Origin: Flavobacteriales bacterium
GTDB taxonomy: Bacteria > Bacteroidota > Bacteroidia > Flavobacteriales_F > PHOS-HE28
Direction of reading: 5' to 3'
Length of the DNA: 64,000 nucleotides
NCBI GenBank assembly: GCA_016703005.1
Contig: JADJCX010000033.1
Location: 297,767-361,766, forward strand
Positions 9,725 through 60,414 of the stretch are shown here, in pieces (position 1 is the first letter of the stretch; the number at the start of each line of letters is the position of its first letter). The notes beneath the pieces are model-generated. The model made no database searches and was not told where the DNA came from. It saw only the letters and a program-made list of their open reading frames with translations. The position numbers and the translations under genes were made by a program.

Positions 9725-9830
9725 TGCGCGAATGTGGAGATGAGGGCGATGTGGAAATCTGAACGGGCGCAAAGATGCCGCTGGGAGCACACTCGTCCGG
9801 CGCGCTTCGCGATCTCCTTTCTTAGCGCAC

Positions 9831-11081
9831 ATGGAGAGAAAGGTGTGGCTGCTCGTGATCGTGGCATCGCTGGGCTACTTCGTGGACATCTACGACCTGG
9901 TGCTGTTCAACGTTGTGAAGAAGGAAAGCCTTGAAGCCATTGGTCTTTCCGGTGCAGCGCTGGTCGACTACGACACGTTCCTCTTCAATTGCCAGATGGG
10001 CGGTATGTTGTTGGGCGGGCTGCTATGGGGCATTCTCGGCGATAAGCGGGGGCGGGTGCAGGTGCTGTTCGGTTCCATCCTGTTGTACTCACTGGCGAAC
10101 GTGGCCAATGCGTTCGTGGTGGACACGTTCTGGTATTCGGTGTGCCGCATTGTAGCCGGTATCGGTTTAGCTGGTGAACTCGGCGCGGGCATCACCTTGG
10201 TGGTGGAGAGCATGCCTCGAACAAAGCGGGGATGGGGTACGATGATCATTGTGACGTTCGGCGCATTGGGTGCCGTCGTGGCCAGTTTGGTTGGAGGTAA
10301 GGGTGCGGCCATCGCGGCTGCGCTGGGTTTGGATGTGATGGGTTGGCAGATGGCCTATATCGTTGGCGGGGTGCTGGGCTTGGTGCTGCTGGCGCTCAGG
10401 GCTGGAGCCTTCGAAAGCGGCATGTTCAAACACGCCCAAGAGCTCACGGATATTCAGAAGGGCAACTTCTTCGCTTTGTTCCGCAGTCGGGCGAGTGCCC
10501 TGAAGTATGTGGCCTCCATCGCCATCGGCTTGCCGGTGTGGTATGTGATCGGTGTGTTGGTCAACAAAAGCAACTTGCTCGCGCCGGCGCTCGGTGTTCA
10601 GGGCGAGGTGAAGGTGGGAGAGAGCGTCATGTGGAGCTACATCGGGCTGAGCATCGGTGACCTCTTGAGCGGTGTGCTCAGTCAACTGTTGCGTAGCCGT
10701 AAAAAAGTGATCCTGCTCTATTTGGTTTTCCTGTCCGTTGCCGTTGTCGCATTTCTCTTCGACCGCGACATGTCGCTGCCATGGTTCTACATCATGTGCT
10801 TGATACTGGGTACCACCACCGGCTTTTGGGCGCTGTTCGTCACGGTCGCATCGGAACAGTTCGGAACGAACCTCCGCAGCACCGTCACCAATACGGCGCC
10901 CAACTTCGTTCGTGGGGCTGTGATCCCGATCACCTTGTCGTTCATGGCGTTGCGCGAAGGGCTCGGTGATGTGCCTGCCGCGTTGATCGTCGGGGCGGTT
11001 TGCATCGGCCTGTCGCTCTGGGCAACGCTGCATGTGGAAGAGACCTTCCACAAGGACCTGGACCACGTGGAGCCGCATTGA
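9831..11081 (+). CDS. MFS transporter
   Basis: 416 aa with about 12 predicted TM helices and an MFS-like GDKRGR motif between TM2 and TM3. Confidence 0.75.
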   Translation: MERKVWLLVIVASLGYFVDIYDLVLFNVVKKESLEAIGLSGAALVDYDTFLFNCQMGGMLLGGLLWGILGDKRGRVQVLFGSILLYSLANVANAFVVDTFWYSVCRIVAGIGLAGELGAGITLVVESMPRTKRGWGTMIIVTFGALGAVVASLVGGKGAAIAAALGLDVMGWQMAYIVGGVLGLVLLALRAGAFESGMFKHAQELTDIQKGNFFALFRSRASALKYVASIAIGLPVWYVIGVLVNKSNLLAPALGVQGEVKVGESVMWSYIGLSIGDLLSGVLSQLLRSRKKVILLYLVFLSVAVVAFLFDRDMSLPWFYIMCLILGTTTGFWALFVTVASEQFGTNLRSTVTNTAPNFVRGAVIPITLSFMALREGLGDVPAALIVGAVCIGLSLWATLHVEETFHKDLDHVEPH

Positions 11082-11176
11082 TGGTTCCCACCACTGGGCG
11101 TGGAAAGTCTGGCCGTGGCACAGCCCTTGCCTTCCGGGGGCCATCCTACTTTCGCCACCCTCAAAGTACCCCCCAC

Positions 11177-12193
11177 ATGAAACGTCTGTCCTCCTTGGTG
11201 ATCGCCCTTGCCATTCCTGCTTTCGGGCTTTTCGCGCAGACCTCCGATCTGGTCTTCTTCAGTGATGACGGTGCCGAGTTCACGTTGATCATAGACGGCG
11301 ACCGCAAGAACATGGAACCGGCCAGCCGCGTGGTGGCCACGGGCATCCGCACCGAATCACCGGTCGTGGTCATCAGCTTCGAGGACGGCAACATCCCGGA
11401 GTTGCGCAAGCCCGGCTACTTCCCGCTGGGAAAGGAGTACACCATCATGATCACCACCAACAAGAAGGGCCAGAAGGTTCTGCGCCCCACGGGAGAAGCA
11501 GTTTTGGGTACGGCCGTGAAGACCGAGCCAGCGAAGATCAAGCCCGTCGATTTCGTTGATGACAGTGTGAAGCCGGCCTCTACGGTCGGTACCACCACGA
11601 CCAGCGGTGGCGTGCAGACCACGCAAACCACCACCATCCAGCAAACCGATGCCAGTGGCGACAATGTGAACATGAACGTGGGCATCGACGTGAACGCGGT
11701 CGGTTTTGACATGAATGTGAACGTGACCGAGGGCAACGGCTCTGGCACCACTACAACCACCACCACAACTTCCACTACGACCACCGCCGTGCCGACCACA
11801 ACGGCTGTGCAGCAGCCTCGCCCGGATAAGCCGGTGCCAGTAGCTGTGCCGGTGCCTGAGCCCGTGTACTCAATGCCGGGCTACACTGGTGCTGTTGGAT
11901 GCCCTTGGCCGATGAACGACTCGGAGTACGCGAGCATGAAAGGCTCCATTGAGAGCAAGACGTTCGAAGAGAGCAAGATGACCTTGGCCAAGCAGATGCT
12001 GAAGGACCGGTGCATGACCGTTGCGCAAGTGAAGGGCTTCATGGGTCTGTTCACGTTCGAGGACAGCAAGCTCGATCTTGCCAAGTACGCCTACGACCGT
12101 ACCTACGACATCGGCAACTACTACCAGGTCAACGACATGTTCACCTTCGAGGCCAGCATCGACGAACTGAACCAGTACTTGGAGAGCAAGTAA
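11177..12193 (+). CDS. Secreted DUF4476-domain protein with a Thr-rich linker
   Basis: Signal peptide MKRLSSLVIALAIPAFGLFAQ and a poly-Thr linker. The C-terminal block (MTLAKQMLKDRCMTVAQVKGFMGLF...YQVNDMFTFEASIDEL) matches the Bacteroidota DUF4476 pattern. Confidence 0.55.
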   Translation: MKRLSSLVIALAIPAFGLFAQTSDLVFFSDDGAEFTLIIDGDRKNMEPASRVVATGIRTESPVVVISFEDGNIPELRKPGYFPLGKEYTIMITTNKKGQKVLRPTGEAVLGTAVKTEPAKIKPVDFVDDSVKPASTVGTTTTSGGVQTTQTTTIQQTDASGDNVNMNVGIDVNAVGFDMNVNVTEGNGSGTTTTTTTTSTTTTAVPTTTAVQQPRPDKPVPVAVPVPEPVYSMPGYTGAVGCPWPMNDSEYASMKGSIESKTFEESKMTLAKQMLKDRCMTVAQVKGFMGLFTFEDSKLDLAKYAYDRTYDIGNYYQVNDMFTFEASIDELNQYLESK

Positions 12194-12217: not shown

Positions 12218-13603
12218 ATGCGCTCCATTCTGCATATCACCTTCGCTGCAGCCTGCGGAACACTGCTGCTGGTTGCCTGCAACGGCTCGAAGAGCTTGGC
12301 CAAGAAAGCGGCGCAACTCGAAGCCGGCGGCATGTACGCCGAAGCCGCTGACATGTACCTGCAATCGGTGCAACGCAGCAACACGAACGTCGATGCCAAG
12401 ATCGGCTTGAAGAAGAACGGCCAGCAGTTGTTGAACGACAAGTTGAGCACGTTCTGGAAATCAGTGAATGCCGGTGGGCAGAAGGGGGAGGCTGTTGATG
12501 CCTACCTCGCCGCCAAAGCCTATTCGGACAAAGTGGGTCGCCTTGGGGTACAGTTGGAGATCCCCGAGAATTACACCACGGATTTCAATAAGGTGAAAAG
12601 CGAGTACGTCTTGGAACTGTACGAAAAGGGGCAGGTGATGCTCGAGAACAAAGACTACGCGAACGCCGAGAAGGTCTTTGCCCGCATAGGTGAATTGGAG
12701 CCAGGTTACAAAGACACCGGAAGCCTGCAAGCAGTAGCCTATTTGGAGCCGCTATATCGGAGTGGCAAAGATGCTCTTGCGGCTGGGCAATACCGCAAAG
12801 CATACGGCGATCTCGGAAAGGTCACAGCCAAGGATGCCACGTACAAGGATGCGGCTGCATTGCGCAAAGAGTCGGTGGAGAAGGGCCGATACACCATAGC
12901 CGTTTTGCCGTTCACAGGCAATGCGAAGCAGAAGGCATTGAATGACAAGCTGCTCGCCTACGCCACCACGGCTCTTACGGAAGTCAACGATCCCTTCCTG
13001 AAGGTCGTCGACCGCGAGAACCTGCAGCGCATCCTCGACGAGCAGCGCCTCGGTTTGAGCGGAGTGGTGGATGAACAGACCGCGGTGAACGTGGGTAACC
13101 TGATGGGTGCGAAGGCCGTGTTGATGGGTACGCTGATCGACTATCGCGAAGAGACGGGTACGTTGAAGACAAGTACCAAGAGCGGGTTCGAGAGCTACCG
13201 CGTGCGCCAGTTGAACAAGGAAACCAACACTTACGAGACGATCGTGAAGTACCGCCCGGTGAAGTACACCGAGAACTTGCAGGAGAACAAGGTCGTCTTA
13301 TCGTTCAGCTACAAGATAGTCTCGTTGGAAACGGGTGAGGTACTCTTCAGCAAAGTGGTTGACGCCACTAAAGACGATCACATGTACTACGCCAGTTACG
13401 ATGGCGACAAGAACAGCTTATTGCCGGCCGGCCAGAACGGTACCGTCGACCCGAACGACGCAGCGCGGCGCAACCTGGTGCAACTGTTGAACGCGCCACG
13501 CGAGATCAAGCCCACGGCCACGCTCGGCAGCGATGCGTTGCGCGAAGGCGCGAATAACATGGCCGCAACTATCCAAGCGCAAGTGGCCAGTATCCAACAG
13601 TGA
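12218..13603 (+). CDS. CsgG/LpoB-like lipoprotein with an N-terminal TPR-like region
   Basis: Lipobox LLVACNG. The C-terminal region (LPFTGNAKQKALNDKLLAYATTALTEVNDPFLKVVDRENLQRILDEQRLGLSGVVDEQTAVNVGNLMGAKAVLMGTLIDY) resembles the CsgG/LpoB fold. Confidence 0.55.
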   Translation: MRSILHITFAAACGTLLLVACNGSKSLAKKAAQLEAGGMYAEAADMYLQSVQRSNTNVDAKIGLKKNGQQLLNDKLSTFWKSVNAGGQKGEAVDAYLAAKAYSDKVGRLGVQLEIPENYTTDFNKVKSEYVLELYEKGQVMLENKDYANAEKVFARIGELEPGYKDTGSLQAVAYLEPLYRSGKDALAAGQYRKAYGDLGKVTAKDATYKDAAALRKESVEKGRYTIAVLPFTGNAKQKALNDKLLAYATTALTEVNDPFLKVVDRENLQRILDEQRLGLSGVVDEQTAVNVGNLMGAKAVLMGTLIDYREETGTLKTSTKSGFESYRVRQLNKETNTYETIVKYRPVKYTENLQENKVVLSFSYKIVSLETGEVLFSKVVDATKDDHMYYASYDGDKNSLLPAGQNGTVDPNDAARRNLVQLLNAPREIKPTATLGSDALREGANNMAATIQAQVASIQQ

Positions 13604-15000
13604 CCGGCACGAAGCACATAGCGTGGGCAGTGATCCTGTCGGCTTCGGTGTTGCCCGGCTGTAAGAACCGGCAGAGCACGGGCACAACTGAAACCCCTGT
13701 CGAACAAGGTGCGCGTCCTGCTTGGGTGCAACAGCGTCCGTCCGGAGGCTTCGACTATATCGGTATCGGCACGGCGAACAAGAGCAGGCCTGACTGGCAG
13801 GAAGCAGCGAAGAAGAACGCGCTGAACGATCTGGCCAGCGAGATAAGCGTGAACATTGAAGGGAACTCCTTGCTCTACACCTTGGATCGGAAGTCCTCAT
13901 TCGATGAAACGTACACCAGCACGATCCAAGCGACTACGCGTGAGCAGTTGGAGGGCTACGAATTGGTAGAGACCTGGGAGAACGGTACCGAGTATTGGAC
14001 CTACTACCGGTTGGACAAGTCGAAACACGCTGCCATCAAAGCGGAGAAGAAGCGCCAAGCGTTGGCCCAAGCCTCCGACTACCACACGCGGTCGCTGGCG
14101 AGCCAAGCAGCAGGCGACCTGAAGACGGCATTCGATCTTGACATCAGGGGTTTGTTGGCGATGCATGAGTATTGGGGTGAAAGCGATATGGCCGACGTGC
14201 AGGGTAAACCAGTACCATTGGCCAATACCATCTTCGGGGACTTGCAGCAGATCACGAGCAATGTCCGCTTTCAGATACTGCCGGAGCGATGCGAGCTCAC
14301 CTTCGATAAGGATTTCCGCCGCGAAATGCTGATCAGCGCGGCACTGGTGCGGAACGGCGGGAGCACGGAACTGGCGCAGTTGCCTTTGAGTATCGTCTAT
14401 CCTGGTTCCACAGGCAAGGTGACCGAAAAGAAGAGTACCGATACGGAAGGGCGGACGCAAACCACCGTTCAGCGTGTTCAGCTGGATGCAACAGCCCCCG
14501 AACTCTTGGTGACCTTGGACATGGACGCACTGGTGAGCAAGGATCTTGATCCCGCATTCGTACGCCCGTTGCTCGCAAGCCTCACCGTACCCGAGAAACG
14601 CGCTGTTATTGAATTGCGGATGCCACGCGTGTACTTGCAAGCCGGCGAGAAGAATTTCGGCGTGGCGATGGCTGACGGCGGTTCGGCTCTGGTGTTGAAA
14701 GAAGAACTGACCAAGCGTGGATTCAGATTCGTGGAAAAGGAAAGCGAGAGCGATATGGTCCTTCGGTTGACAGGGAACACGCGCGAGGGTGGTGAGGCCA
14801 ATGGCTTCCATACCGCGTACTTGGACCTGTCCATCGCATTCAGCGAACGCCGTTCAGGTGACGTCGTTTATGAGGGTGGAAAGCAGAGCATCAAAGGTGT
14901 TCAGCTCGACTACCAGCGTGCCGGGATGGACGCATACAAGAAAGCCGGGCAGGACCTACGGAAGGAGATCATACCCGCGCTGCTTGATGCGCTGCTCTAG
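13600..15000 (+). CDS. LPP20-like domain lipoprotein (large)
   Basis: Lipobox VLPGCKN and an LPP20-like N-terminal region (WVQQRPSGGFDYIGIG...KKNALNDLASEISVNIEG). The stop overlaps the preceding gene. Confidence 0.5.
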   Translation: MTGTKHIAWAVILSASVLPGCKNRQSTGTTETPVEQGARPAWVQQRPSGGFDYIGIGTANKSRPDWQEAAKKNALNDLASEISVNIEGNSLLYTLDRKSSFDETYTSTIQATTREQLEGYELVETWENGTEYWTYYRLDKSKHAAIKAEKKRQALAQASDYHTRSLASQAAGDLKTAFDLDIRGLLAMHEYWGESDMADVQGKPVPLANTIFGDLQQITSNVRFQILPERCELTFDKDFRREMLISAALVRNGGSTELAQLPLSIVYPGSTGKVTEKKSTDTEGRTQTTVQRVQLDATAPELLVTLDMDALVSKDLDPAFVRPLLASLTVPEKRAVIELRMPRVYLQAGEKNFGVAMADGGSALVLKEELTKRGFRFVEKESESDMVLRLTGNTREGGEANGFHTAYLDLSIAFSERRSGDVVYEGGKQSIKGVQLDYQRAGMDAYKKAGQDLRKEIIPALLDALL

Positions 15001-15075
15001 CTGTTCAATGACGCAACCGACTTTGGCACACCTTTGGAAAGCCCAACACAGACGAAACACACAAACGTCCTACAC

Positions 15076-15675
15076 ATGAGAACTCCCTCCACCTTCCGCA
15101 CCGTAACGGTACTCTTCTCTGCCCTGTTGCTGTCCGGCGCGATGACCTCTTGCAAGAGCAAGAAGAAAGCCGCCGAAGCAGAAGCCAAGAACCCACCCAG
15201 CGGCGAGACCGAGGTGAAGGTGATGTGCAGCGGCCCGGAGTTCTTCACGAACAACGAATTCTTCCGTGCGAACGCAGTGGGCGAAAGCATGGACCAAATG
15301 ACATCGAAAAGCAAGGCCATTACTGCGGCCAAAGGCCAGCTCGCGAGCGACATCAACAGCAACATCAAGCGGGTGATCGACCAGTACGTTAACAGCCGCG
15401 AACTGAACAACCGCGAGGAAGTTTCCGAGCGGTTCGAGGGCCTTACCCGCGAAGTGGTGGATCAGAAGCTGAGTGGTGTGCGCACCATCTGCGAGAAGCA
15501 GGTAACGGTGAACGCCAACGGCAACTTCAAGACCTACATCGCCATCGAGTTGAGCGCCCAGGAACTGCTCGCTGCATACAACGAGCGCTTGAGCAACGAC
15601 GAGCGTCTGCGTGTGGACTACGACTATGAGAAGTTCAAGGAGACCTTCGAGAAGGAGATGGAGAAGATGAAGTAA
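15076..15675 (+). CDS. LPP20 family lipoprotein
   Basis: Lipobox MTSCKS and an LPP20 signature (EFFRANAVGES...SKAITAAKGQLASDINSNIKRVID). Confidence 0.55.
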   Translation: MRTPSTFRTVTVLFSALLLSGAMTSCKSKKKAAEAEAKNPPSGETEVKVMCSGPEFFTNNEFFRANAVGESMDQMTSKSKAITAAKGQLASDINSNIKRVIDQYVNSRELNNREEVSERFEGLTREVVDQKLSGVRTICEKQVTVNANGNFKTYIAIELSAQELLAAYNERLSNDERLRVDYDYEKFKETFEKEMEKMK

Positions 15676-18088: not shown

Positions 18089-19546
18089 ATGCTTGATCCG
18101 CTCCGCTGGTTGATCCTTGTTGCTGCGTTCGCGGCTGTATCCGGAGCGTGTGTCGGTCAAGGCGTTGGCGACCGCACGTACTATCCGGAGGAACTGCGCG
18201 AGATCTTGAGCTGTTGCGGACCACGCATCCACGAGGCACATGCCGATCCGTACCGGTACGTGAGCCGCGCGGAGCTCGATAGGCTTTTCGATCGGTTGCG
18301 TGATGGGTTGGGTACGACGCTTTCGGTCAGTTCGTTCATCGATTCGGTTGAAGTGGTACTGCGTGCGATCGGCGATGGACACACATCGTGCGAACTGCCT
18401 CTGGAGGATGCCGCGAGACTGGAAAGGCGGATCCCGATCATGCCGATGGAACTGTCGGTTATCGATGGTGGACTATATGTTCGCCGGGATAAGATGGACT
18501 TCCGGAGCATCGCACCGGGTTCCAGGGTGCTATCGATCGATGGTATTGCTGCCGAAGAGATCATCCGGACCTTGATGGACGAAGCGATCTGCGATGGTCG
18601 ATCAAGGAACGGCGCATTGCGCTTGGTCGAGAACGACTTTGCGATCCTTCACGGAATGCGCTTCGGGTTCCGCACGGAACACAAGCTCGTTTGTGAGAAT
18701 GTACATGGCGTTCTGGAACAAGTGGTCGTGCATTCGTTGACAGGTGAAGAGATGGCCGCCACGAGGCCATCGCAAGAAGAACTGCTGCCTTGGCGTGTTA
18801 CTTTCCATGAGGACCGCTCGCTCGCTTGGGTGGAAATGACCACGCTCGATGCGATGGCGCTTGCCGATGCCGATCAGCGACCCGAGAAATTCTTGGGCGA
18901 GCTCTTGCGGGAACTGGAAAAGAAGGAAGTCGGAATACTCGTGCTCGACTTGCGTGGCGCCGCGGGCGTAGACCTTGGGATGGCCGAACAGGTGTTCGCC
19001 TTGGTTGCCCAGAAACCATTCCGTGTAGTGCAGAGCATGGCCGTGCGATCGATCACGGTGCCCACTTGGTACCGCCGCGCCGTACCGCTGGATGACTTCT
19101 ATGCTTCAGCTGGTGGCCGGTTCGCACTGGAGGAGGCGGGTCTCTATGTATTGCATCCGAACGACGAGCGCTTGAAGGACCTTCCTGCGAGCTATCGCCG
19201 GTTCGAAGGCGGGGTGTATGTGCTACAGGATGGGCTCACACGGGAAGCCGCTGCTGCCGTTGGGATCCTGGCGAAGCGCAGCGGACGTGGCAAGCTGCTG
19301 GGTGAAGAGGCTGGCACGAATTCTTTCTCGTACTGCGGAGGAAGGGAATTGCTTATAACGGCACCCAATACGGGAGTGCGGTTCACGGTGCCATTGATCC
19401 GATATGTCTTCGACGGTGCAGCATCGGGCCCCAATGAACTGGGTGAATTGCCGGACATCACGCTCCAACCCGATGCCGGTAGTCTTGTTACCGGGGAAGA
19501 TGGTATCCGCAAAGCCGCGTTGACGGTCATCGAAGGACTACGATGA
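18089..19546 (+). CDS. Secreted S41-family (C-terminal processing/tricorn-like) peptidase homolog
   Basis: Signal peptide, a PDZ-like segment (VLSIDGIAAEEII) and an S41-like core. Domain recall only. Confidence 0.45.
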   Translation: MLDPLRWLILVAAFAAVSGACVGQGVGDRTYYPEELREILSCCGPRIHEAHADPYRYVSRAELDRLFDRLRDGLGTTLSVSSFIDSVEVVLRAIGDGHTSCELPLEDAARLERRIPIMPMELSVIDGGLYVRRDKMDFRSIAPGSRVLSIDGIAAEEIIRTLMDEAICDGRSRNGALRLVENDFAILHGMRFGFRTEHKLVCENVHGVLEQVVVHSLTGEEMAATRPSQEELLPWRVTFHEDRSLAWVEMTTLDAMALADADQRPEKFLGELLRELEKKEVGILVLDLRGAAGVDLGMAEQVFALVAQKPFRVVQSMAVRSITVPTWYRRAVPLDDFYASAGGRFALEEAGLYVLHPNDERLKDLPASYRRFEGGVYVLQDGLTREAAAAVGILAKRSGRGKLLGEEAGTNSFSYCGGRELLITAPNTGVRFTVPLIRYVFDGAASGPNELGELPDITLQPDAGSLVTGEDGIRKAALTVIEGLR

Positions 19547-20659
19547 GGGATCGATTTTGGTGGGGCGCACTTGCGCTGATCAGCTGCGGTACGCCGGAAC
19601 CCGATCGTGCGTTGACGGGGGAATGGATCGAGCATCGTCCTGAGGTAGCGCAACATTTCACGGTGCTCCTGAGCGGAGCACAACGTCGATTGTTGGTGTT
19701 CGCCGATCCGCAACGTGGCGATACCATCTGATCTTGTCGTTGGGGGCAAGATCCGGGAGGGTGGTCGCTTTGCCGTTCTCAGTACTACTTACTTGCCGTA
19801 CATCACTGCACTTGGGCGTACCGGTCAAGTGTCTGGTGCAGCGCATCTGGACAAAGTGCGGGATACAGCTGCGATGCGGCTCCGCGACCTTGGAAGGATC
19901 ACCGACTTGCGTACAGCCGACGGCGTTGACCGCGAAGCGATCATGGCGATTGCTCCCGACCTGGTACTTGGCTACCCCTTCGGTCGAGAGGATGGTGTCG
20001 GGACTATCGCAGGTGTCCCGTATGTAATGGTCGCAGAGTACTTGGAGGCACATCCTTTGGGCCGAGCTGAGTGGTTGAAGTTCTTCGGGGCTTTGTTGGG
20101 GAAGGAGCGGGATGCCGATAGTCTATACGCCGGGATCGCAGAGCGCTATGCCGTTGCGAAGGCCCTGCCTGGTGGCGCGGATCGCCCCAAGGTTCTTTTC
20201 GGAAGTCAATGGAACGGACAGTGGTGGGTTCCGCCGAGCAACAGCTACATGGCGCAGTTGATCACCGATGCAGGTGGCGACTACGTCTTCGCCGACATGC
20301 AAGGAAAAGAGAACATCGCGGTGGATATGGAGACCATCCTCGCACGCGCCAGTGATGCTGATGCATGGGGTATGATCGCGGAATTGCCCCGGCATCCCAG
20401 GGTTGCTGACTTCACCGGGGGTGATGAACGCCTTCTGGTGTTGAAAGCAGTGCACGAGAACAAGCTGTTCCTTGGGAACACTTCGCGATCCGACCTTTTC
20501 GGGCAGGCGATCATTGAGCCTGATATCGTGTTGGCCGAGCTGCGGGAGATCATGCAGCCGTTTCCAGGGATCACGGATCCCAGCGGGCGGAGGCCCAAGT
20601 ACTTTGAATGGCTCAGCGGTCACATTCCCCCACCTCCCGAACAGGAGCAGGGTCAGTAA
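19543..20659 (+). pseudogene. Periplasmic binding protein of an iron-siderophore/B12-type ABC transporter (BtuF/FecB-like), frameshifted
   Basis: The lipoprotein signal peptide (MRDRFWWGALALISCG) is in frame 1 (19543-19731). The binding domain (RFAVLSTTYLPYITALG...) is in frame 2 starting at GTG 19715, with a stop in that frame at 19670. Confidence 0.55.
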
Positions 20660-22951: not shown

Positions 22952-23884
22952 TTACCGGACCACTTCCACCGCCCGGGCTTCTTGGCTCCCGGCGATCTCC
23001 TTCAGCATCAGGTACCAACCTTTCTTCGACTTCCACCAACCGCTCTCCGGGCATTCCGGGTCGGGTATGGAGATCACACCGACGGAGACATCGTCCCCCA
23101 GTGCTTCCTTGTATAGCGCACGTGATCTGCGAGCATGCACTCCGAGGGTAACAACATCGAGCGCCGTGATCCCCTTTCCGTTCAAGTGGAACGCCAATGT
23201 TGATGCATTGGCCCATGATCGACTGATGGGGTCGCCACCGGCAGGCACCGGTGTGATAGCCGTGCCCGAGATGCCGGTCCCTTCAAGGATATGCGCACTA
23301 TGTTCAGCATAGGTCAGATCACCATCGCGTGAGGAACTGTCGGGCGAAACGATGCGGATACGTATGCCGAGTTCATGAGCGCTGATCCCATCGAACCGCA
23401 GTGAGTGGATGAACACGGAAGGTGGCCCTGGTTGGGGATATTGCGGGTCGGCGATGATGCGAAGGTCAGTAAGAGCAACGCTGTGATCGACCCCATGGGT
23501 CGTGATCCGATCGGTCATGGGTACATGGAGCAGCGTATCCTCACCGGACTTCACCACGGCGCTGCAACCCGGCAACCCGGCCAAACCGATCTCGAAGCCT
23601 TTCGCCGTGTTCGGCAGACCGGAAACATCAAGTCGATCGCCGGGTGCCAGGTAGTAGGCGAAGGGTCGGGTGGTTCCAGTTGTGTAAATGCGCTCATAGC
23701 CGCCGGTCGTAAAGAGCCTTGCAGCTTGCTCAATGGCGTCATCGTCCATCCAGCCTTCCACCACCAGCACTTTGCCTCCGCTGCGTTCGGTGATCGCGAG
23801 CCATGGATGTGCGAAGAACAGCAGCACCAAGCCAACAACACTCACCACTACCAGCGTGAACAATATCCTTCTCATCCACTTCAT
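22952..23884 (-). CDS. DUF218 (ElyC/SanA/YdcF-like) membrane-anchored protein
   Basis: N-terminal TM helix and a C-terminal region with the GVHARRSRALYKEAL motif resembling DUF218. Confidence 0.45.
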   Translation of the reverse strand: MKWMRRILFTLVVVSVVGLVLLFFAHPWLAITERSGGKVLVVEGWMDDDAIEQAARLFTTGGYERIYTTGTTRPFAYYLAPGDRLDVSGLPNTAKGFEIGLAGLPGCSAVVKSGEDTLLHVPMTDRITTHGVDHSVALTDLRIIADPQYPQPGPPSVFIHSLRFDGISAHELGIRIRIVSPDSSSRDGDLTYAEHSAHILEGTGISGTAITPVPAGGDPISRSWANASTLAFHLNGKGITALDVVTLGVHARRSRALYKEALGDDVSVGVISIPDPECPESGWWKSKKGWYLMLKEIAGSQEARAVEVVR

Positions 23885-24117
23885 TCGAACGCCTCCATCA
23901 AGGTGTTGCGCAACTCGTTCAACTCTCCGCGCGCTTTTCGATCAGCGTTCACCAAGCATTGCAGCATGCCCGCTTCACAAGCCGCAACAGCTTCCATCGT
24001 TCGCCCAACATCTGCAAGCTAAACGCTTGTGTTCAAGGGCTATAGCGTATCGCAGGAACACATCGTGAGGTTCTTCGGCAAGCATGGCTTGCAACTGCGT
24101 CATCCGGTCGGTGCTCA
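23880..24117 (-). CDS. Small TPR-like protein, apparently frameshifted near 24017
   Basis: MSTDRMTQLQAMLAEEPHDVFLRYAIALEHKRL (frame A) continues plausibly only in frame B (...ADVGRTMEAVAACEAGMLQCLVNADRKARGELNELRNTLMEAFE*). The stop overlaps the downstream ATG as ATGA, indicating translational coupling. Not in the ORF track because the fragments are under 60 aa. Confidence 0.35.
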
Positions 24118-24125
24118 TTGAGTGA

Positions 24126-24809
24126 TCAATGAAGAACAGGAGAGGCACCCTGTTGAAGCACCGAACCGTTGCTCATTTCCACGATGCGATCGGCAATGTG
24201 CGCGGCGTCCTGCGCATCGTGACTAACGATCACTGCCGTCATGCCCAGCCGCTTCAATAGGTGTTTCACTTCGCTGCGTACGGTTGATCGCGTGGCGCTG
24301 TCGAGATCGCTGAACGGCTCGTCCATCAGCAGCAGTTTGGGCTTTCGTGCCAGCGACCGGGCAATGGCCACGCGCTGTTGTTGGCCGCCGCTGAGCTGAT
24401 GCGGATAGCGGTCCCCGAGTTCTTCCAGCCCGAGCAGTTCAAGGTGTTCCTCTACCACTTTGTTCCTTTCGGACTTGTCGAGATGCCGGAGCCCGAAGGC
24501 GATATTCCGCTGGACCGTTAGGTGCGGGAACAAAGCATGGCCTTGGAACACGTATCCCACAGGACGGTCTTCGGTGGGCACCATACGACCCGGGCTACTG
24601 AGGACAGCGCCATCAAGCAGAATGGTTCCGGCAGTGGGTACCTCCAGGCCCGCGATCAACCGCAGCAATGTGCTTTTACCGCAACCGCTGGGACCGGTCA
24701 GAACAAGGATCTCGTGCGCATCGACGCCGATGCCAGCAGATCGAAGCACAGGCTTTCCGTTCGGGTACGAGAAAGAAAGCCCTGTGATCCGAAGTAATGC
24801 GTTGCTCAT
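24126..24809 (-). CDS. ABC transporter ATP-binding protein (FbpC/CysA-like, no TOBE domain)
   Basis: Walker [13 protein letters not shown] signature [13 protein letters not shown] and Walker B LLLMDEP. Confidence 0.85.
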
Positions 24810-26374
24810 TGGCGGGGCCGTCCATGAAGGCGGTCGAGCGCCAACACGGGAACCAGTGCGCAAAGTACGATCGCTAAGGCTGGTAGGGCAGCCTCACGTA
24901 CCTGCTCGATCCGTGTGTAGCGATGTACCGACGTGCTCAGCGTATCGAAGTCGAACGGTCGCATGATCAGCGTGAGCGGGAGTTCCTTCATCACCTCAAG
25001 CACGACCAACAGGACCGCGGCGATGAGCGCTGGGCGGAGCAGGGCAGGTTCACGCTGAAGAACGGCGCATGGGAGGCCCCCAAGGAGCGTGCGGACTCAT
25101 CTAGTGCTATGGATTGTTGTGCAAGGCCAGCATTGATGGGTTGGGCGGCGACCGCGAGGAACCGCACGCTGAACGCATATACAAGCAGGGGCAGGGTGCC
25201 GATCATCATCAGCCTGCTGCTTATGCCCATGGTCGCGAGTTGTGTATCAAGGCCACCAGCCAAGCCCATTACGCCCACGGCGATAACGGCCCCTGGAACG
25301 ACGTAACCCAGCCGCGCCAACCAAGACAACCAGCCACGTTGCCTTTGCGAAGCGCTCACTCCATGCCAGGACCAACGCGATGAGCAACGTAATAGCCGCG
25401 GCCCATGCGCCCACATGAAGGGTGTTCATGGTCGCAATGCCCAGTTCGGATATGAGGCTCATATTCACCACGTCGACGGCATCACGGATCAACACTCCAA
25501 TGGGCAACGCGCTGCTGAAGAAGAACAACAGGATGCAAGCGGCAATGACCAACCAACGCTGTTTTCCGCACAATGCGGTCCGCTTCATGGGGCGATGGTC
25601 CGCGTTGCGCAAGCCCTTTCGGCGCAACATCCGTTCGGTGATCAACAAGGTGGCCACCAAGACCAGCAATACAGTTGCCAGCCGCATTGCGCTGCCCTGA
25701 TCGTAAAGCCCTCCCCAGCTGCGGAAGATGCCCGTTGTGAGCGTCGCAGCACCGTAGTGTTTCACTGCCCCGTAGTCGTTCAATGATTCCATGCAGACCA
25801 GAACCGCCCCGCCGACGATCGCTGGTCTTGCCAAGGGCAGGGCGATCGCTACAAAGCGCCGGAACGGTGAAGCGCCCAACGTTCTTGACGCTTCGAACGC
25901 ATCCGTAAGACCTCCGCTGAACGCTGCACGTGCGGGCAGATACACGTAAGGGAAGAGCACTACTGCCAACACGATGCATAGGCCGGGCAGGTTCATGATG
26001 TCCATGCGCACTCCGAGGAGATCGTTGAATGCCAAGCTCCACGTGCCCGTCGCACCGAGTACGCCCGCATAGGCCAACGCGCTGATGTAGGTGGGCAGCG
26101 CCAGCGGCAACACGAAGGCCCAACTGAAGAACCGACGGCCCGGAAAATCGAACATCGCAATACACCATGCGCTGCCCACGCCCAGTAACGTGGCCAGCGT
26201 TACAGTGCCCGCCAGCAGTATGAGGGTCCCGGCAAGATGCTGCCAGAGGAAAGCACCGCCGACGTAATCCCATTGAGGAGCAGTGATGTGGAAGGGTGCC
26301 ACCAGAACAACCAGTATAGGAAGGCACAGCAACAATGCTGCAATTGCGGCAATGATGCTGAGCGCGCGCGTCAT
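24806..26374 (-). pseudogene. Fe(3+)-type ABC transporter permease (FbpB-like, two-domain), disrupted by two frameshifts
   Basis: Three consecutive ORF fragments (26374-25247, 25416-24991, 25009-24806) together span a single ~520-aa double permease. The shifts are at about 25305 (GGGTTAC) and about 25042 (G/C run). The last fragment carries the conserved ELPLTLIMRPFDFDTLST C-terminus. Confidence 0.7.
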
Positions 26375-26423
26375 AGTGAATGGAAGGCCGGTTGGCTATG
26401 CATCGGGCCGGGACTGGAACCCA

Positions 26424-27470
26424 TCACTTCCAGCCCGCTTCGCCCATGACTTTCACGGCCTCGGCGTTGAACTCGTCAAGCTTACTCAGCTCAAGACTGT
26501 CCTGCACCAACGTGCCGAAAGCCTACAAGGCGGGTGCAGCAGCCACACCGGATTTCACAGGGAATTCCATGTTGCCTTCGGCGAAAACGCGTTGCGCAAC
26601 ATCGCTGCTCAGGAACTCGATGAGCTTGATCGCGTTCTCCTTGTTATTCGCGTGCCGCGCAACGCCCGCACCGCTAACGTTCACATGTGTTCCAGTGGAT
26701 CCGCCCAGGCCCGGGTATGACACGGCGATCACATCTCTTGCTTTCTGCTTTGCACTTGTGGTGTCCGTCAGCAGCTTGCCGATGTAGTAGCTGTTCACCA
26801 GTGCCACTTCGCCCAAGCCTTCTCCAATAGCCAGCATCTGGTCGGTATCCCCGCCTTTTGGGTCGCGGGCCATATTGGCCACGATGCCTTTGCACCAATC
26901 CAAGGTCTTTTCACGGCCGAAGTGCGCGATCATGGCGGCTACAAGGCTCTGGTTGTACGTGTTCTCGCTGCTGCGCACCAACAACTTGCCCTTGAAGCGC
27001 GGGCCAGTGAGCGCATCGTAGCTCGCTACTTCCGTTGGCTTCACCCTGTTCTTGTCGTAGGCGATCACGCGGGCGCGCATGCTCAGGCCGTACCAATTGT
27101 GTTCAGCGTCGCGCAAGTGCTTTGGAACATTCGCATCCAGCACTTCGCTCCGCACGGGTTGAAGGAAACCAGCTTGTTTGCACAGACCCAAGCGACCGGC
27201 ATCGCTGGTGAGGATCACATCGGCTTGGCTATTGGGGCCTTCAGCCGCAAGCCGGGAGAGCAATTGGTCATCGTCGGCGTCGATCACGCGCACCGCGATC
27301 CCTGTGGCCTCCTCGAAATCGGCGAAGAGCTGTTTGTCCACATCATAGTGGCGATGGCTGTACACGTTCACAACCTGAGGTTCAGGCACGTTACCGACCG
27401 GTTCGGGTTGTGTTCCGCATGCAGCGATGAGGGCGGCGAGCGCAACGGGGAAGTGGAAGTTCTTGAACAA
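26424..27470 (-). pseudogene. Fe(3+) ABC transporter substrate-binding lipoprotein (FbpA/AfuA-like) with an in-frame TAG
   Basis: Lipobox LIAACG. The ORF stops at TAG (26521-26523), but the same frame continues with the expected FbpA C-terminus AFGTLVQDSLELSKLDEFNAEAVKVMGEAGWK* for 32 more codons. The TAG sits where a Lys (AAG) would be expected. Confidence 0.65.
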
Positions 27471-33117: not shown

Positions 33118-34506
33118 ATGACCGCGCGCAACCTCTTGATCGGTGTATTCTGTTCCGCAGTGACACTGGCCAATGGCCAGCAGATCACCAACGGCGCGTT
33201 CGAGTCGTGGACGGATCTGGTCGCATACCGGGACATCGACGTGTGGCGGGACGGGAACTACCAGATACCGGGCACTTCCACTACGACCCGCGTGAGTGGC
33301 CAGATCGGCCAATACGCCGCGCGCATGGAAACGGTGACCGCTGGCGGCACTACGACATTCGGCTTCATCGTGCATGGGGAGTTCGCTGGTCAGACCGCTA
33401 CGGAAGGTGTACCGTTCACCACTGCCGTTGATGCCATGGAAGGCTGGTACCGGTACAGCTTAACGCCCGATGATTCGGCCATGATCTATTTGCTGTTATG
33501 GAACAATGGGGTGGCCTTGGATACCATCGTTCATTTGATCGGTGGTACCCAATCGCAATGGACGGCATTCAGCCTGCCGGTGAACGGTGGCGTGCCCGTT
33601 ACTCCGGACAGTGTTGTGGTAGCTGTTACCAGCAGCAACCCGTTCGCGCTTACCGGCATGGCGGCTGGTTCGTGGATCGAAGTGGATGATCTGCAACTCA
33701 CCAGTACCACCGTCCTTAACCCTGACCTTCTCCCGAACAACGGCATGGAGGATTGGACGGACATCACCACAGAGGAACCCGATGGGTGGACAACCTTCAA
33801 TCCGCTGCTGGCACAATTGGGCTATACGCCTGTCACCAAAAGCACCATGGCCCACGCGGGGACGTATTCCATCCGCATGGAAACGATCGACCTCGGCGGC
33901 GATACGCTGCCGGGCATCATTACCAATGGCGATCTGTTCGGTGCCGGGCTGTTCTCCGGTATCCCATACAACGACACTCCTTCGTTGATGACCGCGTTCT
34001 ACCGATACGCACCCGTTGGTACGGACACGGCGGGCGTGGCCGCGCTCTTCATCAAGAACGGGTTGCTATTGGAGCAAGCCTACTTGCAGATCACCAGTGC
34101 TGCGGCGGTATGGACCTTCACCGGTGCGCCTATCCTGCTGTTCCAAGAACCCGATACACTGGTGATCCAGATTTACGCGGGATCGAATCCAGGATCGGTG
34201 CTGTACTTGGATGACTTGGCGTTCTCGGGCATCAGCACGGGCATTTCAACCGCCACCATGAGCGCCATACGCGCATGGCCGCAGCCCGCAACGGATGTGT
34301 TGAATGTTTCACTTGGCGATATCGGAACGACCGGCACCACCACACGCGTGCTGGATAGAATGGGTCGCGTGGTGCTTGAGGGCAGTGTTGGCAGTAGAGC
34401 AGCAGGACAGCTTGTTCTGCCCATGCAAGGGCTCACCTCCGGCCACTACATACTTGAGGTGCGCAGCGGTGACCGCGTTGAGCGCTTGCCGTTCGTGAAA
34501 GGCTGA
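33118..34506 (+). CDS. Secreted protein with a T9SS type A C-terminal sorting domain
   Basis: Signal peptide, two internally repeated about 150-aa modules and a Por-secretion tail (HYILEVRSGDRVERLPFVKG). Confidence 0.65.
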   Translation: MTARNLLIGVFCSAVTLANGQQITNGAFESWTDLVAYRDIDVWRDGNYQIPGTSTTTRVSGQIGQYAARMETVTAGGTTTFGFIVHGEFAGQTATEGVPFTTAVDAMEGWYRYSLTPDDSAMIYLLLWNNGVALDTIVHLIGGTQSQWTAFSLPVNGGVPVTPDSVVVAVTSSNPFALTGMAAGSWIEVDDLQLTSTTVLNPDLLPNNGMEDWTDITTEEPDGWTTFNPLLAQLGYTPVTKSTMAHAGTYSIRMETIDLGGDTLPGIITNGDLFGAGLFSGIPYNDTPSLMTAFYRYAPVGTDTAGVAALFIKNGLLLEQAYLQITSAAAVWTFTGAPILLFQEPDTLVIQIYAGSNPGSVLYLDDLAFSGISTGISTATMSAIRAWPQPATDVLNVSLGDIGTTGTTTRVLDRMGRVVLEGSVGSRAAGQLVLPMQGLTSGHYILEVRSGDRVERLPFVKG

Positions 34507-37465: not shown

Positions 37466-38112
37466 AGAAGCTCATAGCGATCACGATACCCATAGTACTG
37501 CTGTTCTCGGCATGCGGTGGTGGACAGACCGAGGAACCGAAAGCCGCTGACGCCAGCAACGGCGCTCAGTTGATGCAGGCCCGCATCGACAGCATGCGCC
37601 TTTCCATGGAGGACGATACCATCTACAATGCGCGCGGCGCACAGGAATTGTTGGATGTGTACAAGGCGTATGCGAAGGCCTATCCGCTGGACAGTCTTTC
37701 ACCCGAGTTCCTTTTCCGCGCTGCCGGCCTTAGCGATCCGTTGGGCCGTCCGGATGAGAGCGTGGTGCTCTACGATCGCGTGATCAAGAGCTACCCCGCA
37801 TGGCCGCGCTTGGTGGACTGCTACTACTTGAAGGCCTTGACCATTGACAAAATGCAGCGCAAGGGCGAAGCGCGAATGGCCTACGAGGAAGTGATCAACC
37901 GGTTCCCGGATCACCAGTTCGCGGCGGATGCGAAGCAGATGATCGAGAACCTCCAGTACACGGATGAAGAACTGATCGAGAAGTTCCGCATGCAGAACGG
38001 TCTCGAGGCGCAGGCAGCGACCAACGCCTCGCAGGCACCTGCATTGAGCAAGGCGGAACAGTCCGCAGCCGACAAAGCTGCCACTGAAGCGAAGGAGAAG
38101 GCCAAGGGGGGA
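37462..38112 (+). CDS. TPR-like lipoprotein. The track ORF runs on to 38649, probably through a G-homopolymer frameshift.
   Basis: Lipobox LLFSACGG and a TPR-like body. With G5 instead of G6 at 38106-38111 the protein ends ...ATEAKEKAKGE*. As assembled it reads antisense through pyrC. Confidence 0.5.
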
Positions 38113-38183
38113 ATGAACTTTTGGGACCGAGGGGCGGCGCGCCCATACACCGGAACGGGGCAGTGGGCGACAGACTGGGGCGA

Positions 38184-47973: not shown

Positions 47974-48142
47974 CCGATTATGAGTATGAGGCAAAGATGG
48001 CTCCCACTTGTCGCGTGATGGGCTGACGCTCGCCTTCGACTCGCTTAATTGCAAGTCAGCATTGCAGCGATTGGCTACATTCGCATCATGCGAGCTATGA
48101 CGCGGCGAATATGGATATGTGGCTAAGCCACTATCTCATTAT

Positions 48143-48216
48143 GGCCCCGTAGCTCAGTCGGTCAGAGCATCTGCCTTATACGCAGCCGGTCGCAGGTTCA
48201 AGTCCTGCCGGGGCTA
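48143..48216 (+). tRNA. tRNA with anticodon UAU (Ile-AUA decoding) on an ileX-like (tRNA-Ile2) backbone
   Basis: Cloverleaf: acceptor GGCCCCG/CGGGGCT, D-arm GCTCAGTCGGTCAGAGC, anticodon stem-loop TCTGC-CTTATAC-GCAGC, T-arm GCAGGTTCAAGTCCTGC, discriminator A, no encoded CCA. Near-identical architecture to E. coli ileX except the anticodon is TAT instead of CAT. Confidence 0.75.
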
Positions 48217-48348
48217 CTGATATTCCATCTCACCTTCATCACATGCACCCGCTCGCGCATTGCAGACGCTCGCCTTCGGCGAGTGTCCGAGCGGTGTACC
48301 AGCATGTGGTAAAGATCGGATACAAGATGAACTCTGGATATTAGAGCC

Positions 48349-59044: not shown

Positions 59045-60414
59045 TCAGCGCACCAGCGCCACATGCCCGAGCAACTCGCGGCGTTGCGTCGGTTCCGCCA
59101 ACAGCTGCGCCTTCACCTGCACCACATAGATGCCACTGGGTACTTCATCGGCACTCCATGATGCACCCGATGTGCCGTTGAAGAGCGCCTGCCCCCAACG
59201 GTCGAAGACCACGAACTCCAAGGACCAAACGCGCGGGTCGTAAACGGGTGCGAAGTTGTCGTTCATGTCGTCGTGGTTCGGGGTGAAGGCGTTGGGCAGG
59301 TAGATGCCGTCCGGACATTCCTCGCTGACGACCAGCACGCTATCGATAGCGCCTCCGCAGGTGTTGCTCACCGTGGCGTAGTACAGCCCGGGCCCGTGGA
59401 TGGTGCGGTCGGTGCCAATAGTACCATCATCCCACACCACCGTGGTTCCGGCATCGGCAAACGCATGCAGCACATCGTTCGTTCCGCTGCACAGTGTACG
59501 GTCAGCACCGAGTTCCAAGTAGGGGAGCGGCACCAGCCCCACCACCACGGTGTCCGTGAATTCACAATCGCCCACGCTCACCTGCACGCTGTACGTGCCC
59601 GGACTTGTCACGGTACGTTGCGCGGTGGTGACGCCGTCGTTCCACAGCGTTGCCGTTGCACCCGGCACGGTAGCATCCAGTATATAGGAGCCGCCGCAAA
59701 GGGCAGTGTCGGGCCCCAAGTCCAGCTCATCGAGCACGGGCACCAGCGACACATCATCCACCAAGAGGTAGGCTTGCTCCGTAACCACACACCGGGGTTG
59801 AACATCGCCCAGGTGGTGTTCGCATCGTTGCGGAAGTTGCCGATGGTAAGGTGTGTTTCGCCGCCACCGGCCGTGTACGTGCCGCTGACTTCCGTCCAGC
59901 CCAGCGTATCGGTTATGAGCACGCCAAGCGGGTGGTCGATCTGTGGTGTCAGCGCCAAGACAAAGGGACTATTGCTGCTCACGGGTCCTACGCTGAAGTG
60001 CGCCCCGATACCATCGCAGGCCAGTTCGAATTCGTTCGGCATGTTCACGTACATGCTGAAGGTGTAACACGAGCCGGCCACGAGGGGTTGCAACAACGGC
60101 ACTTCGATGTACTCGCGCATTTGCGGCACACCCACGCGGAAGGTGTAGATGCCCGCAAAGCCTACACCCGTCCGCGCATACTGAAAACCGCCGCTGTAGT
60201 TGAGCGGCACCCCAGCGAAATCGCCGTTCGGCGCGCAGCCGTGGTAGAGCTCCGGCGTGCCTTGCGTGGGGTTGTACCACGGCGCGGCAAGGTTCAGCAT
60301 GCTTGCGAACGTGGGGCAGCTGGTAACGGTCTCGAAGCTGGGGTTGGGCACCAGATTCTGCGTGCGCGCACCCAGCGCGCAGAACAAGCCTGCCGAAAGA
60401 GCCACGTACCGCAT
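59045..60414 (-). CDS. Secreted protein with a T9SS type B (gliding-motility-associated, CHU_C) C-terminal sorting domain, with a frameshift near 59794-59797
   Basis: The N-terminal ORF (60414-59608) has a signal peptide. The C-terminal ORF (59788-59045) ends in IYLPNAFTPNHDDMNDNF...SGIYVVQVKA. One extra G in the G4 run at 59794-59797 fuses them (...AMFNPRCVVTEQAYLLVDDVSL...). Confidence 0.6.

Follow-up and report, generated by a model that had tools for sequence, protein, structure and literature searches.

Private lesions in a predicted FutABC-type ferric-iron importer operon of a Flavobacteriales MAG are probably consensus errors of a low-coverage Nanopore assembly

The stretch of DNA analysed in this study, hereafter the window, comprises 64,000 nucleotides from an uncultured activated-sludge bacterium of the Flavobacteriales, GTDB family PHOS-HE28. 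On its minus strand lies a predicted ferric-iron ABC importer locus of the FutA/FbpA type, with the gene order binding protein, fused permease, short ATPase and conserved small TPR gene. The genes of this locus and the lesions found in them are as follows.

26424..27470, minus strand: futA/fbpA-like gene of a predicted ferric-iron binding lipoprotein, 348 codons and a terminal TGA, with an interruption at codon 316
26523..26525, minus strand: in-frame TAG at codon 316 of the binding-protein gene; CAG (Gln) in all other assemblies of the species
26476, minus strand: private G>A substitution (Gly332Asp) 49 nt past the TAG, at a Gly that L001 and L002 share
24806..26374, minus strand: fused two-module permease gene (futB/fbpB-like), 1569 nt here versus 1575 nt (524 aa) intact
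25332..25347, minus strand: lesion cluster A, the first frame change, net -2
25065..25072, minus strand: lesion cluster B1, C5>C3 (-2) and GCGCACG>GCGCCG (-1), net -3
25042..25045, minus strand: lesion B2, the second frame change, CTGCCCCTG>CTGCCCTG, -C
24126..24809, minus strand: ABC ATPase gene, intact, 227 aa, nucleotide-binding domain alone
23881..24118, minus strand: remnant of a conserved 108-aa TPR-like gene 3' of the ATPase, with a faint TPR_20 match
24019/24020, minus strand: 89-nt deletion breaking the TPR-like gene, with G>A at the junction

The initial annotation had called this locus an Fe(3+)-type ABC importer, and our searches agree. In a phmmer search of the PDB, the binding protein aligns end to end, over residues 23-348, with FutA1 (2pt1, E=7.5e-95), and further matches are IdiA (6g7n, 4.6e-93), FutA2 (2voz, 2.3e-86) and 1q35 (2.3e-71). 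Its Pfam matches are SBP_bac_6/8/1/11, while matches to NCBIfam are solely sub-threshold, to thiamine/2-AEP binding proteins. All five predicted Fe3+ ligands, namely His41 and Tyr42 (RHY), Tyr172 (NTYNQ), and Tyr228 and Tyr229 (NSYY), are kept and align with the same residues in FutA1, IdiA and FutA2. In FutA2/IdiA, Fe3+ is known to be bound by an N-terminal His-Tyr pair and three tyrosines of the C-domain (PMC6254336). When the frame of the permease is corrected, permease models match both halves of the resulting 521-aa protein (TIGR03262 at residues 7-510, TIGR03255 at residues 297-519); the intact 524-aa permease ORFs of conspecific assemblies carry PF00528, and single uninterrupted ORFs of 524-530 aa are found in L013, L014, L001 and L002. 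The ATPase is intact, as had been annotated, and its protein is identical on 11 other contigs. It matches about the first 185-230 positions of profiles 325-380 positions long, resembles ThiQ in length and lacks the C-terminal regulatory domain of the FbpC/FutC-type ATPases (about 350 aa). Judged from its sequence, the shortness of the ATPase is characteristic of the family and no lesion, being the same in all conspecifics. The 108-aa TPR-like gene is whole in nine conspecific assemblies and in L001-L003. By homology, the periplasmic lipoprotein would bind Fe3+ through one His and four Tyr, the fused two-module permease would receive the iron from it, and the short ATPase would supply the power.

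Reading of the lesions against the intact genes of the species changes the earlier description in several respects. The binding-protein gene does contain an in-frame TAG, although at 26525-26523 and not at 26521-26523, and translation confirms that 32 more in-frame codons (AFGTLVQDSLELSKLDEFNAEAVKVMGEAGWK) follow it before the terminal TGA at 26426-26424. The TAG was thought to replace a Lys codon, but all four conspecific assemblies that cover the position (L013, L014, L015 and L027) read CAG, and the residue among Flavobacteriales homologues is Q in 10 of 11 and E in the other one, in the context LQAFG/LQGFG. The permease reads as three ORFs (26374-25247, 25416-24991 and 25009-24806), just as reported. 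These do not result from two 1-nt frameshifts, however, since the permease lacks 6 nt in five small deletions, which lie in three tight clusters. In cluster A, one A is missing at 25347-25344 (A4>A3) and one C is missing together with a C>T change at 25334-25332 (GGCCCGG>GGCTGG), which places the first frame change near 25340 with a net loss of 2 nt, not near 25305, while the second one, at 25042-25045, stands. One other assembly, GCA_963851765, has its own +GC at the position of cluster B1. The three disabling lesions of the initial annotation are present in the sequence, but the lesions are more numerous than that, and the 89-nt deletion at 24019/24020 had been missed.

Comparison with orthologues, which the initial annotation had recommended as a check, reveals that every operon lesion is private to this assembly. 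None is reproduced in the 4-9 independent conspecific assemblies from other samples, in which the genes are intact and 99-100% identical locally. The bases missing from cluster A are present in every one of the 6-7 assemblies covering the site, all the missing permease bases are present in 6-9 assemblies that span both permease alleles (see below), and the 89-nt segment is retained in nine. Outside the lesions, nearly all 60-nt blocks of the operon match allele A at 100%. Private substitutions amount to two in futA (non-synonymous or nonsense), three in the permease (all synonymous) and none in the ATPase, numbers too few for dN/dS.

Private indels are also found in four unrelated genes of the window, encoding a Peripla_BP_2 protein, an S41 peptidase, a TPR_6 protein and a T9SS protein, and three of these genes are disrupted.

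19543..20659, plus strand: gene of a Peripla_BP_2 binding protein (372 aa elsewhere), cut short by a private -TG at 19729, beside GATC
18202..18226, plus strand: S41 peptidase gene with a private -G and a private +C separated by 24 nt; 8 codons rewritten, both changes at GATC sites
59045..60414, minus strand: gene of a T9SS CHU_C-domain protein, divided in two by a 1-nt deletion at 59784; GCA_963851765 has the intact 456-aa form
38108..38113, plus strand: two 1-nt deletions, 5 nt apart, in the 218-aa TPR_6 gene, removing its stop; one close comparator only

The window ORF at 59608-60414, its out-of-frame tail included, is identical to MBK6777504.1 (IPG74_17245). Suspected frameshifts at rpsP/rimM (6.2-7.7 kb), Mpo1/DinB (20.6-21.6 kb), 48.2-49.5 kb, 62.6-64.0 kb and IS3 orfA/orfB (45.7-46.8 kb) were explained by separate, intact genes or by an ordinary programmed frameshift. 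Altogether about 12 indel events fall in about 60 kb of the window, as many as would be usual in a MAG of this kind, and outside the operon there are about 100 private substitutions, which look natural and occur mostly at three-base intervals. The concentration of indels in the operon exceeds chance, as 6 of the 12 window-private events lie in 5.8% of the compared sequence (P=2.6e-5), an enrichment of about 15-fold. The lesions are also clustered, with seven of the eight in the operon having a neighbour within 50 nt (P=6.6e-4) and 11 of 14 window-wide (P<1e-5). Indel events in the operon number about 6 and clean private substitutions about 5, and the small indels there are deletions without exception. 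Most lesions lie outside long homopolymers, in runs of 3-5 nt or in none.

Sequence motifs were considered as a cause of these errors. GATC is 2.2-fold over-represented in the window, and all three lesions at 18-20 kb together with 3 of the 9 private indels of L014 lie at GATC sites (6/22 versus a background of 8-9%, P about 0.005 by hand calculation). Dam-type methylation of GATC was nevertheless rejected for the operon, where the lesions are all >75 nt from any GATC, and the motifs GCGC, AAGCTT and CTTG showed no convincing enrichment near the lesions.

The source of the window is the MAG Aved_18-Q3-R54-62_BATAC.823_sub (JADJCX), a CANU Nanopore assembly from the Avedøre WWTP in 2018 (reads in BioProject PRJNA629478), polished with Racon, two runs of Medaka and one Racon round on Illumina reads. 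Its recorded depths are npcov 11.35 and ilmcov 5.25, with a StrHet of 60 and a polymorphic rate of 2.7%. At a mean depth of 5.25x, our computation gives 10% of positions at a depth of 2 or less, and at half that depth 52%. The MAG represents its species in dRep cluster 291_1, which also contains the MAG of L014. In this sister MAG, produced by the same pipeline, 9 private indels are spread evenly over 20 kb. GCA_963851765 shows 2-3, apart from six that crowd into 133 nt, and short-read contigs of the species show 0-2 in 49 kb. Residual Nanopore indel errors are a known problem that calls for short-read polishing, especially below 40x (PMC9262707), and the authors of the source MAGs acknowledge such errors (PMC8012365).

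Another feature of the locus is that the permease exists in two alleles, A and B, which share 77% identity over 1.1 kb and are both present in one metagenome (L019, L027). Short-read contigs end inside the permease gene. In the window, allele-A-like sequence gives way to allele-B-like sequence at about 25035, about 10 nt past lesion B2. The first 1 kb of the permease lies within this dimorphic segment, yet is error-free, and the TAG and the 89-nt deletion lie outside it. Five of the six deleted bases fall at columns that differ between A and B, and dropout from a mixed pileup was considered for this reason; it was rejected, since the chance of such coincidence is 60-80%, the placement of deletions in runs being arbitrary.

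Because the lesions are private, the source is a low-coverage long-read assembly (11x Nanopore / 5x Illumina), other genes and the sister MAG are hit by similar lesions that short-read contigs nearly lack, and the pattern is clustered and rich in indels, we consider it probable that the TAG, the five deletions in the permease and the loss of 89 nt arose as errors in the consensus of the source assembly and not as mutations of the organism. On the same grounds, the earlier argument that a point nonsense mutation rules out a homopolymer artefact, so that the operon is likely being lost, is unsupported. We infer thin local coverage at the lesion patches; errors would persist where short-read depth was nil. 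The pile-up of errors in the operon would probably come from the two permease alleles splitting a thin coverage and inviting a chimeric consensus, as usable coverage should be thinner in a region where two co-occurring alleles are only 77% identical. Several observations speak against consensus error. Nanopore consensus errors more commonly take other forms than a C>T nonsense change or an 89-nt deletion; the permease is clean over its first 1 kb despite the dimorphism there, while the TAG and the 89-nt deletion are beyond the dimorphic segment; relaxed selection would also predict a concentration of lesions in one co-transcribed unit; small indels that are all deletions also fit the natural deletional bias of bacterial pseudogenes; and the private Gly332Asp after the stop is what decay would give.

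The alternative to which these observations point is a real, recent and strain-specific pseudogenisation, in which one Avedøre strain no longer needs high-affinity Fe3+ uptake, for example in iron-replete sludge, and is decaying the futA-futB-TPR unit, and perhaps Peripla_BP_2, while other strains keep the unit. Disabling lesions are indeed present in the sequence, and they are of three kinds, nonsense, small deletions and an 89-nt deletion; half of the indel events of the window fall in this one unit, a conserved Gly is altered past the stop, a second binding-protein gene is broken too, and the natural-looking private substitutions elsewhere suggest a distinct strain. We nevertheless regard this alternative as unlikely. 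It requires at least 4-7 disabling events in an operon whose 60-nt blocks, with few exceptions, otherwise match allele A at 100%, whereas about 5 private substitutions would be expected to go with about one indel, not six, if the usual bacterial indel-to-substitution ratios apply. A decaying unit should show lesions scattered among accompanying substitutions and reproduced in independent data; the lesions here lie within 50 nt of each other, unlike independent mutations, and do not recur in the other samples of the species. The same kind of lesion affects the unrelated T9SS protein, TPR_6 and S41 peptidase genes, and the MAG comes from an 11x/5x Nanopore source whose sister MAG is riddled with such indels. 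Recombinational import of an old pseudogene was rejected, since the operon is about 100% identical to the intact allele A outside the lesions. Should the lesions be real, which appears doubtful, the strain would have very recently inactivated its only FutABC-type importer and a second periplasmic binding protein by clustered complex events, with co-occurring strains keeping both, and this may be tied to the deep two-allele permease polymorphism and to recombination at its edge.

Two explanations that would leave the proteins functional are weaker still. That the TAG is read through or recoded, by a suppressor tRNA or as Gln as in some recoded phages, so that the binding protein is full length, would agree with the stop sitting exactly at the Gln of relatives and with the conservation of the 32 codons downstream. 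TAG, however, terminates 8 of the 44 confident genes of the window, no suppressor tRNA was found within the window, conspecific assemblies read plain CAG, and the permease frameshifts would be left unexplained; the idea is effectively refuted. Programmed ribosomal frameshifting, or a naturally split permease, is suggested by the three consecutive ORFs that jointly span the entire permease, and is just as improbable. All relatives, 70% to 99.9% identical, have one ORF of 517-541 aa, which refutes a split gene; there is no slippery motif, and the roughly 100 codons read out of frame encode transmembrane segments, where the original frame runs into stops.

If the lesions are consensus errors, as we favour, they serve as a caution to users of the MAG. 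It is very probably the GTDB representative of the species, as it is the species representative of its own study and a scan of GTDB representative genomes gave no conspecific match. Its broken futA, futB, TPR, Peripla_BP_2 and T9SS genes would spread as pseudogenes or missing functions into metabolic reconstructions. A lone nonsense codon is no proof against assembly error in low-coverage long-read bins, and comparison with short-read contigs of the same species settles such questions cheaply. If true, the lesions would be a modest example of strain-level iron-uptake loss in a wastewater bacterium, and would capture, at population level, high-affinity iron uptake in the course of being lost, perhaps in treatment plants dosed with iron.

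Compared with known indel errors of Nanopore R9-era MAGs, the lesions are alike in being private, gene-breaking 1-2-nt indels that long-contig MAGs carry and conspecific short-read contigs do not. They differ in that few lie in long homopolymers, in the presence of a substitution and an 89-nt deletion, and in their unusual concentration in one operon. As to the importer, it shares family and architecture with FbpABC/HitABC/SfuABC of Neisseria, Haemophilus and Serratia (PDB 1d9v, 1o7t and 1xvy at E=1e-20 to 1e-25), and the FbpA proteins of Mannheimia, Campylobacter and Bordetella match the binding protein at 1e-64 to 1e-71. The FbpABC/HitABC/SfuABC systems form a much more distant branch than FutA, and their binding proteins use a synergistic anion and fewer Tyr ligands. 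In contrast to FutC/FbpC-type ATPases, the ATPase here has 227 aa and no C-terminal regulatory domain. Unlike cyanobacterial FutABC, the locus belongs to a Bacteroidota host (PHOS-HE28), its predicted iron-binding protein has a lipoprotein signal (LIAAC), and a conserved 108-aa TPR-like gene follows. It resembles the cyanobacterial FutA1/FutA2/IdiA-FutB-FutC system in the end-to-end alignment of the binding protein, with its His-Tyr pair and three C-domain tyrosines, in the fused two-module permease of about 520 aa, and in the order binding protein-permease-ATPase.

The four closely spaced genes of the ferric-iron importer operon all lie on the minus strand:

27470..26424, minus strand: binding-protein gene (Pfam SBP_bac_6/8/1/11)
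26374..24806, minus strand: permease gene, with two transporter modules once frame-corrected
24809..24126, minus strand: ATPase gene, overlapping the permease stop by 4 nt and encoding a 227-aa bare nucleotide-binding domain
24118..23881, minus strand: remnant of a small TPR-like gene, beginning 8 nt past the ATPase stop

Our analysis indicates that the disruption of this otherwise ordinary FutABC-type importer, which is at least sevenfold and not threefold as the initial annotation had counted, has most probably arisen as a consensus artefact in the assembly of a Nanopore MAG of low coverage. The in-frame TAG in the binding-protein gene is present, but at 26525-26523, two bases from where it had been placed; exactly 32 conserved codons separate it from the TGA, as claimed, and the codon it replaces is CAG (Gln) rather than a Lys codon. 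The permease is indeed split into three ORFs, not by two 1-nt frameshifts but by the loss of 6 nt in five deletions that form three tight groups. The missing permease bases were read from an alignment with L013, an independent contig of the same species that is 99.4% identical:

25347-25344, minus strand: one A lost from an A4 run
25334-25332, minus strand: one C lost from GGCCCGG, with a neighbouring C>T
25072-25065, minus strand: two C lost from a C5 run and one A from GCGCACG
25045-25042, minus strand: one C lost from a C4 run
24019/24020, minus strand: outside the permease, an 89-nt deletion disrupting the TPR-like gene, previously unnoticed

The ATPase was correctly described as intact, the same protein sequence being found on 11 other contigs.

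Conspecific contigs from at least eight other samples were found through exact-protein look-ups and comprise two MAGs from NCBI, three short-read contigs from ENA and two from JGI, and several Logan contigs. CAG is present in each of the four conspecific assemblies that span the TAG site, the missing permease bases are present in all six to nine assemblies spanning those sites, in both permease alleles alike, and the 89-nt segment is present in 9 of 9 assemblies spanning 24019/24020. The operon lesions are absent from every conspecific assembly spanning the sites (4 to 9 per site). They are confined to one assembly; contrary to the earlier inference, therefore, loss of the operon is not under way in the species. 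A scan of species-representative genomes shows that the operon is also intact in L001 and L002, two sister species whose collinearity with the window extends across 16 kb at 70-91% DNA identity. Among more distant Flavobacteriales MAGs, an adjacent intact permease is present in some cases and no adjacent permease in others. Recoding of TAG is ruled out, since 8 of 44 genes use TAG as their normal stop and conspecifics have CAG, and so is programmed frameshifting of the permease, which is a single ORF in all relatives.

Private indels were counted for each assembly only where at least two comparators exist. The window has eight small ones plus the 89-nt deletion; a sister Nanopore MAG (L014) has 9 in 20 kb, evenly distributed; the conspecific long-contig MAG GCA_963851765 has 2-3, plus six clustered within 133 nt of a gene whose window copy is intact; and short-read contigs have 0-2 across 49 kb. 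Four unrelated genes of the window also bear private indels of the same kind, each gene being intact in conspecific assemblies:

19543-20659: Peripla_BP_2 gene, truncated by a private -TG at 19729
18202/18226: S41 peptidase gene, private and compensating -G/+C, eight codons rewritten
38108/38113: TPR_6 gene, two private 1-nt deletions, stop codon lost
59784: T9SS CHU_C protein gene, split by a private -A

The T9SS CHU_C gene shows a clean frame switch at about 59.8 kb, and its conspecific protein is intact at 456 aa. A protein search showed the truncated window ORF, out-of-frame tail included, to be identical to the 268-aa MBK6777504.1 (IPG74_17245, Flavobacteriales bacterium). The source of the window is the MAG Aved_18-Q3-R54-62_BATAC.823_sub (JADJCX000000000; GTDB family PHOS-HE28), the species representative of dRep cluster 291_1, which also holds the MAG of L014, Ejby_18-Q3-R6-50_MAXAC.161 (JADJJQ); it has a coverage of 5.25x Illumina and 11.35x Nanopore, a strain heterogeneity of 60 and a polymorphic rate of 2.7%, and it was assembled from Nanopore reads with CANU, followed by Racon, two rounds of Medaka 0.6.5 and one Illumina Racon round (Singleton et al. 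2021, Supplementary Data 3, PMC8012365). Nanopore bins below about 40x require short-read polishing against frameshifts (Sereika et al., PMC9262707). About a dozen indel events per ~60 kb is the expected content of such a bin; the number in the window matches it, and no biology need be invoked.

Real strain-specific decay of the operon, which we consider unlikely, would account for the deletion bias and for the concentration of lesions in one transcription unit, where they are about 15-fold enriched (P=2.6e-5). This enrichment calls for explanation whether the lesions are artefacts or decay. Decay fits poorly, however, with lesions in unrelated genes, with so many events at negligible divergence and with the clustering: 7 of 8 operon lesions (P=6.6e-4 under uniform placement) and 11 of 14 across the window (P<1e-5) have a neighbour within 50 nt. 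Apart from the lesions, almost every 60-nt block of the operon matches the intact allele at 100% identity, and the clean private substitutions of the operon number about five, compared with about six indel events. Going by usual bacterial mutation spectra, neutral independent decay should scatter lesions and yield substitutions far outnumbering indels. Patches of several errors are the residue of short-read polishing gaps.

Such gaps may relate to a permease dimorphism within the species. Alleles A (L013, L018-L020) and B (L027, L016, L017, L021) share 77% DNA and 86% protein identity over about 1.2 kb (about 26,230-24,980), as distant from each other as each is from the sister species L001, while identity in the flanks is at least 99%. 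The permease ORF is open in both alleles, which occur together in one JGI metagenome, 3300009540 (L019, L027), and the dimorphism looks like allelic replacement via recombination. Short-read contigs from several samples terminate within the permease gene, GCA_963851765 has a contig break adjoining the operon, and the window permease turns from A-like to B-like at about 25,035, with one lesion some 10 nt away. Splitting of the 5x/11x coverage between strains would leave more than half of the region's positions at an Illumina depth of 2 or less. It does not neatly account for the TAG, Gly332Asp and the 89-nt deletion, which lie outside the dimorphic segment. The consensus-artefact reading has its main value as a caution about the JADJCX reference genome.

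Several other features were seen. In GCA_963851765 (L030, about 13990-15180, against window 56394-56527), six 1-nt indels within 133 nt, a cluster similar to that of the window in another long-contig MAG, split into 231 + 133 aa a gene that the window has as one ORF of 412 aa. GATC occurs 514 times in the window, where base composition would predict about 234, and its sites coincide with the private indels at 18202, 18226 and 19729 and with three of the nine in the sister Nanopore MAG, a hint of basecalling errors related to methylation. Opposite window 38122/38183, exactly where the TPR_6 gene loses its stop, GCA_963851765 has an insertion of 800 nt (L028 11241-12041) that contains a GIY-YIG nuclease gene and is absent from the window. 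An IS3-family insertion sequence (45683-46844), with the orfA (HTH_Tnp_1)/orfB (rve) overlap typical of programmed -1 frameshifting, may be strain-specific, because GCA_963851765 has a different gene 3' of the E1 dehydrogenase. Between this element and a tRNA-Ile with the unusual anticodon TAT (48143-48217) lies a SEFIR/TIR-domain protein gene, where the GC content of the window is at its lowest (46873-48217 region, 52.7%); this is a possible small defence island acquired at a tRNA. Dense window-private substitutions at 9250-11500 and 33300-33630, many at multiple-of-three spacing in surroundings at least 99.5% identical, resemble tracts brought in by recombination from a lineage that has not been sampled.

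The TPR-like gene encodes 108 aa with a faint TPR_20 match (window 23881-24118; L013 3203-3529; L001 about 13360-13686). It lies 3' of the ATPase in every relative examined, directly so in the species of the window and in L001-L003, with a 4-nt overlap with the next gene, and may be a conserved accessory of the importer. Judged from sequence, the operon is a FutABC-like ferric-iron importer with a short ATPase. The N-terminus of the binding protein closes with a lipobox-like LIAAC, and its end-to-end matches among solved structures are ferric-iron binding proteins, led by FutA1 (2pt1, E=7.5e-95), Trichodesmium IdiA (6g7n, 4.6e-93) and FutA2 (2voz, 2.3e-86), followed by FbpA of Mannheimia, Campylobacter and Bordetella. 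In FutA2 and IdiA, Fe3+ is bound by an N-domain His-Tyr pair and three C-domain tyrosines (PMC6254336). All of these ligands are kept in the window protein as His41, Tyr42, Tyr172, Tyr228 and Tyr229, in agreement, like the structure matches, with the original assignment to the Fe(3+)-type ABC importers.
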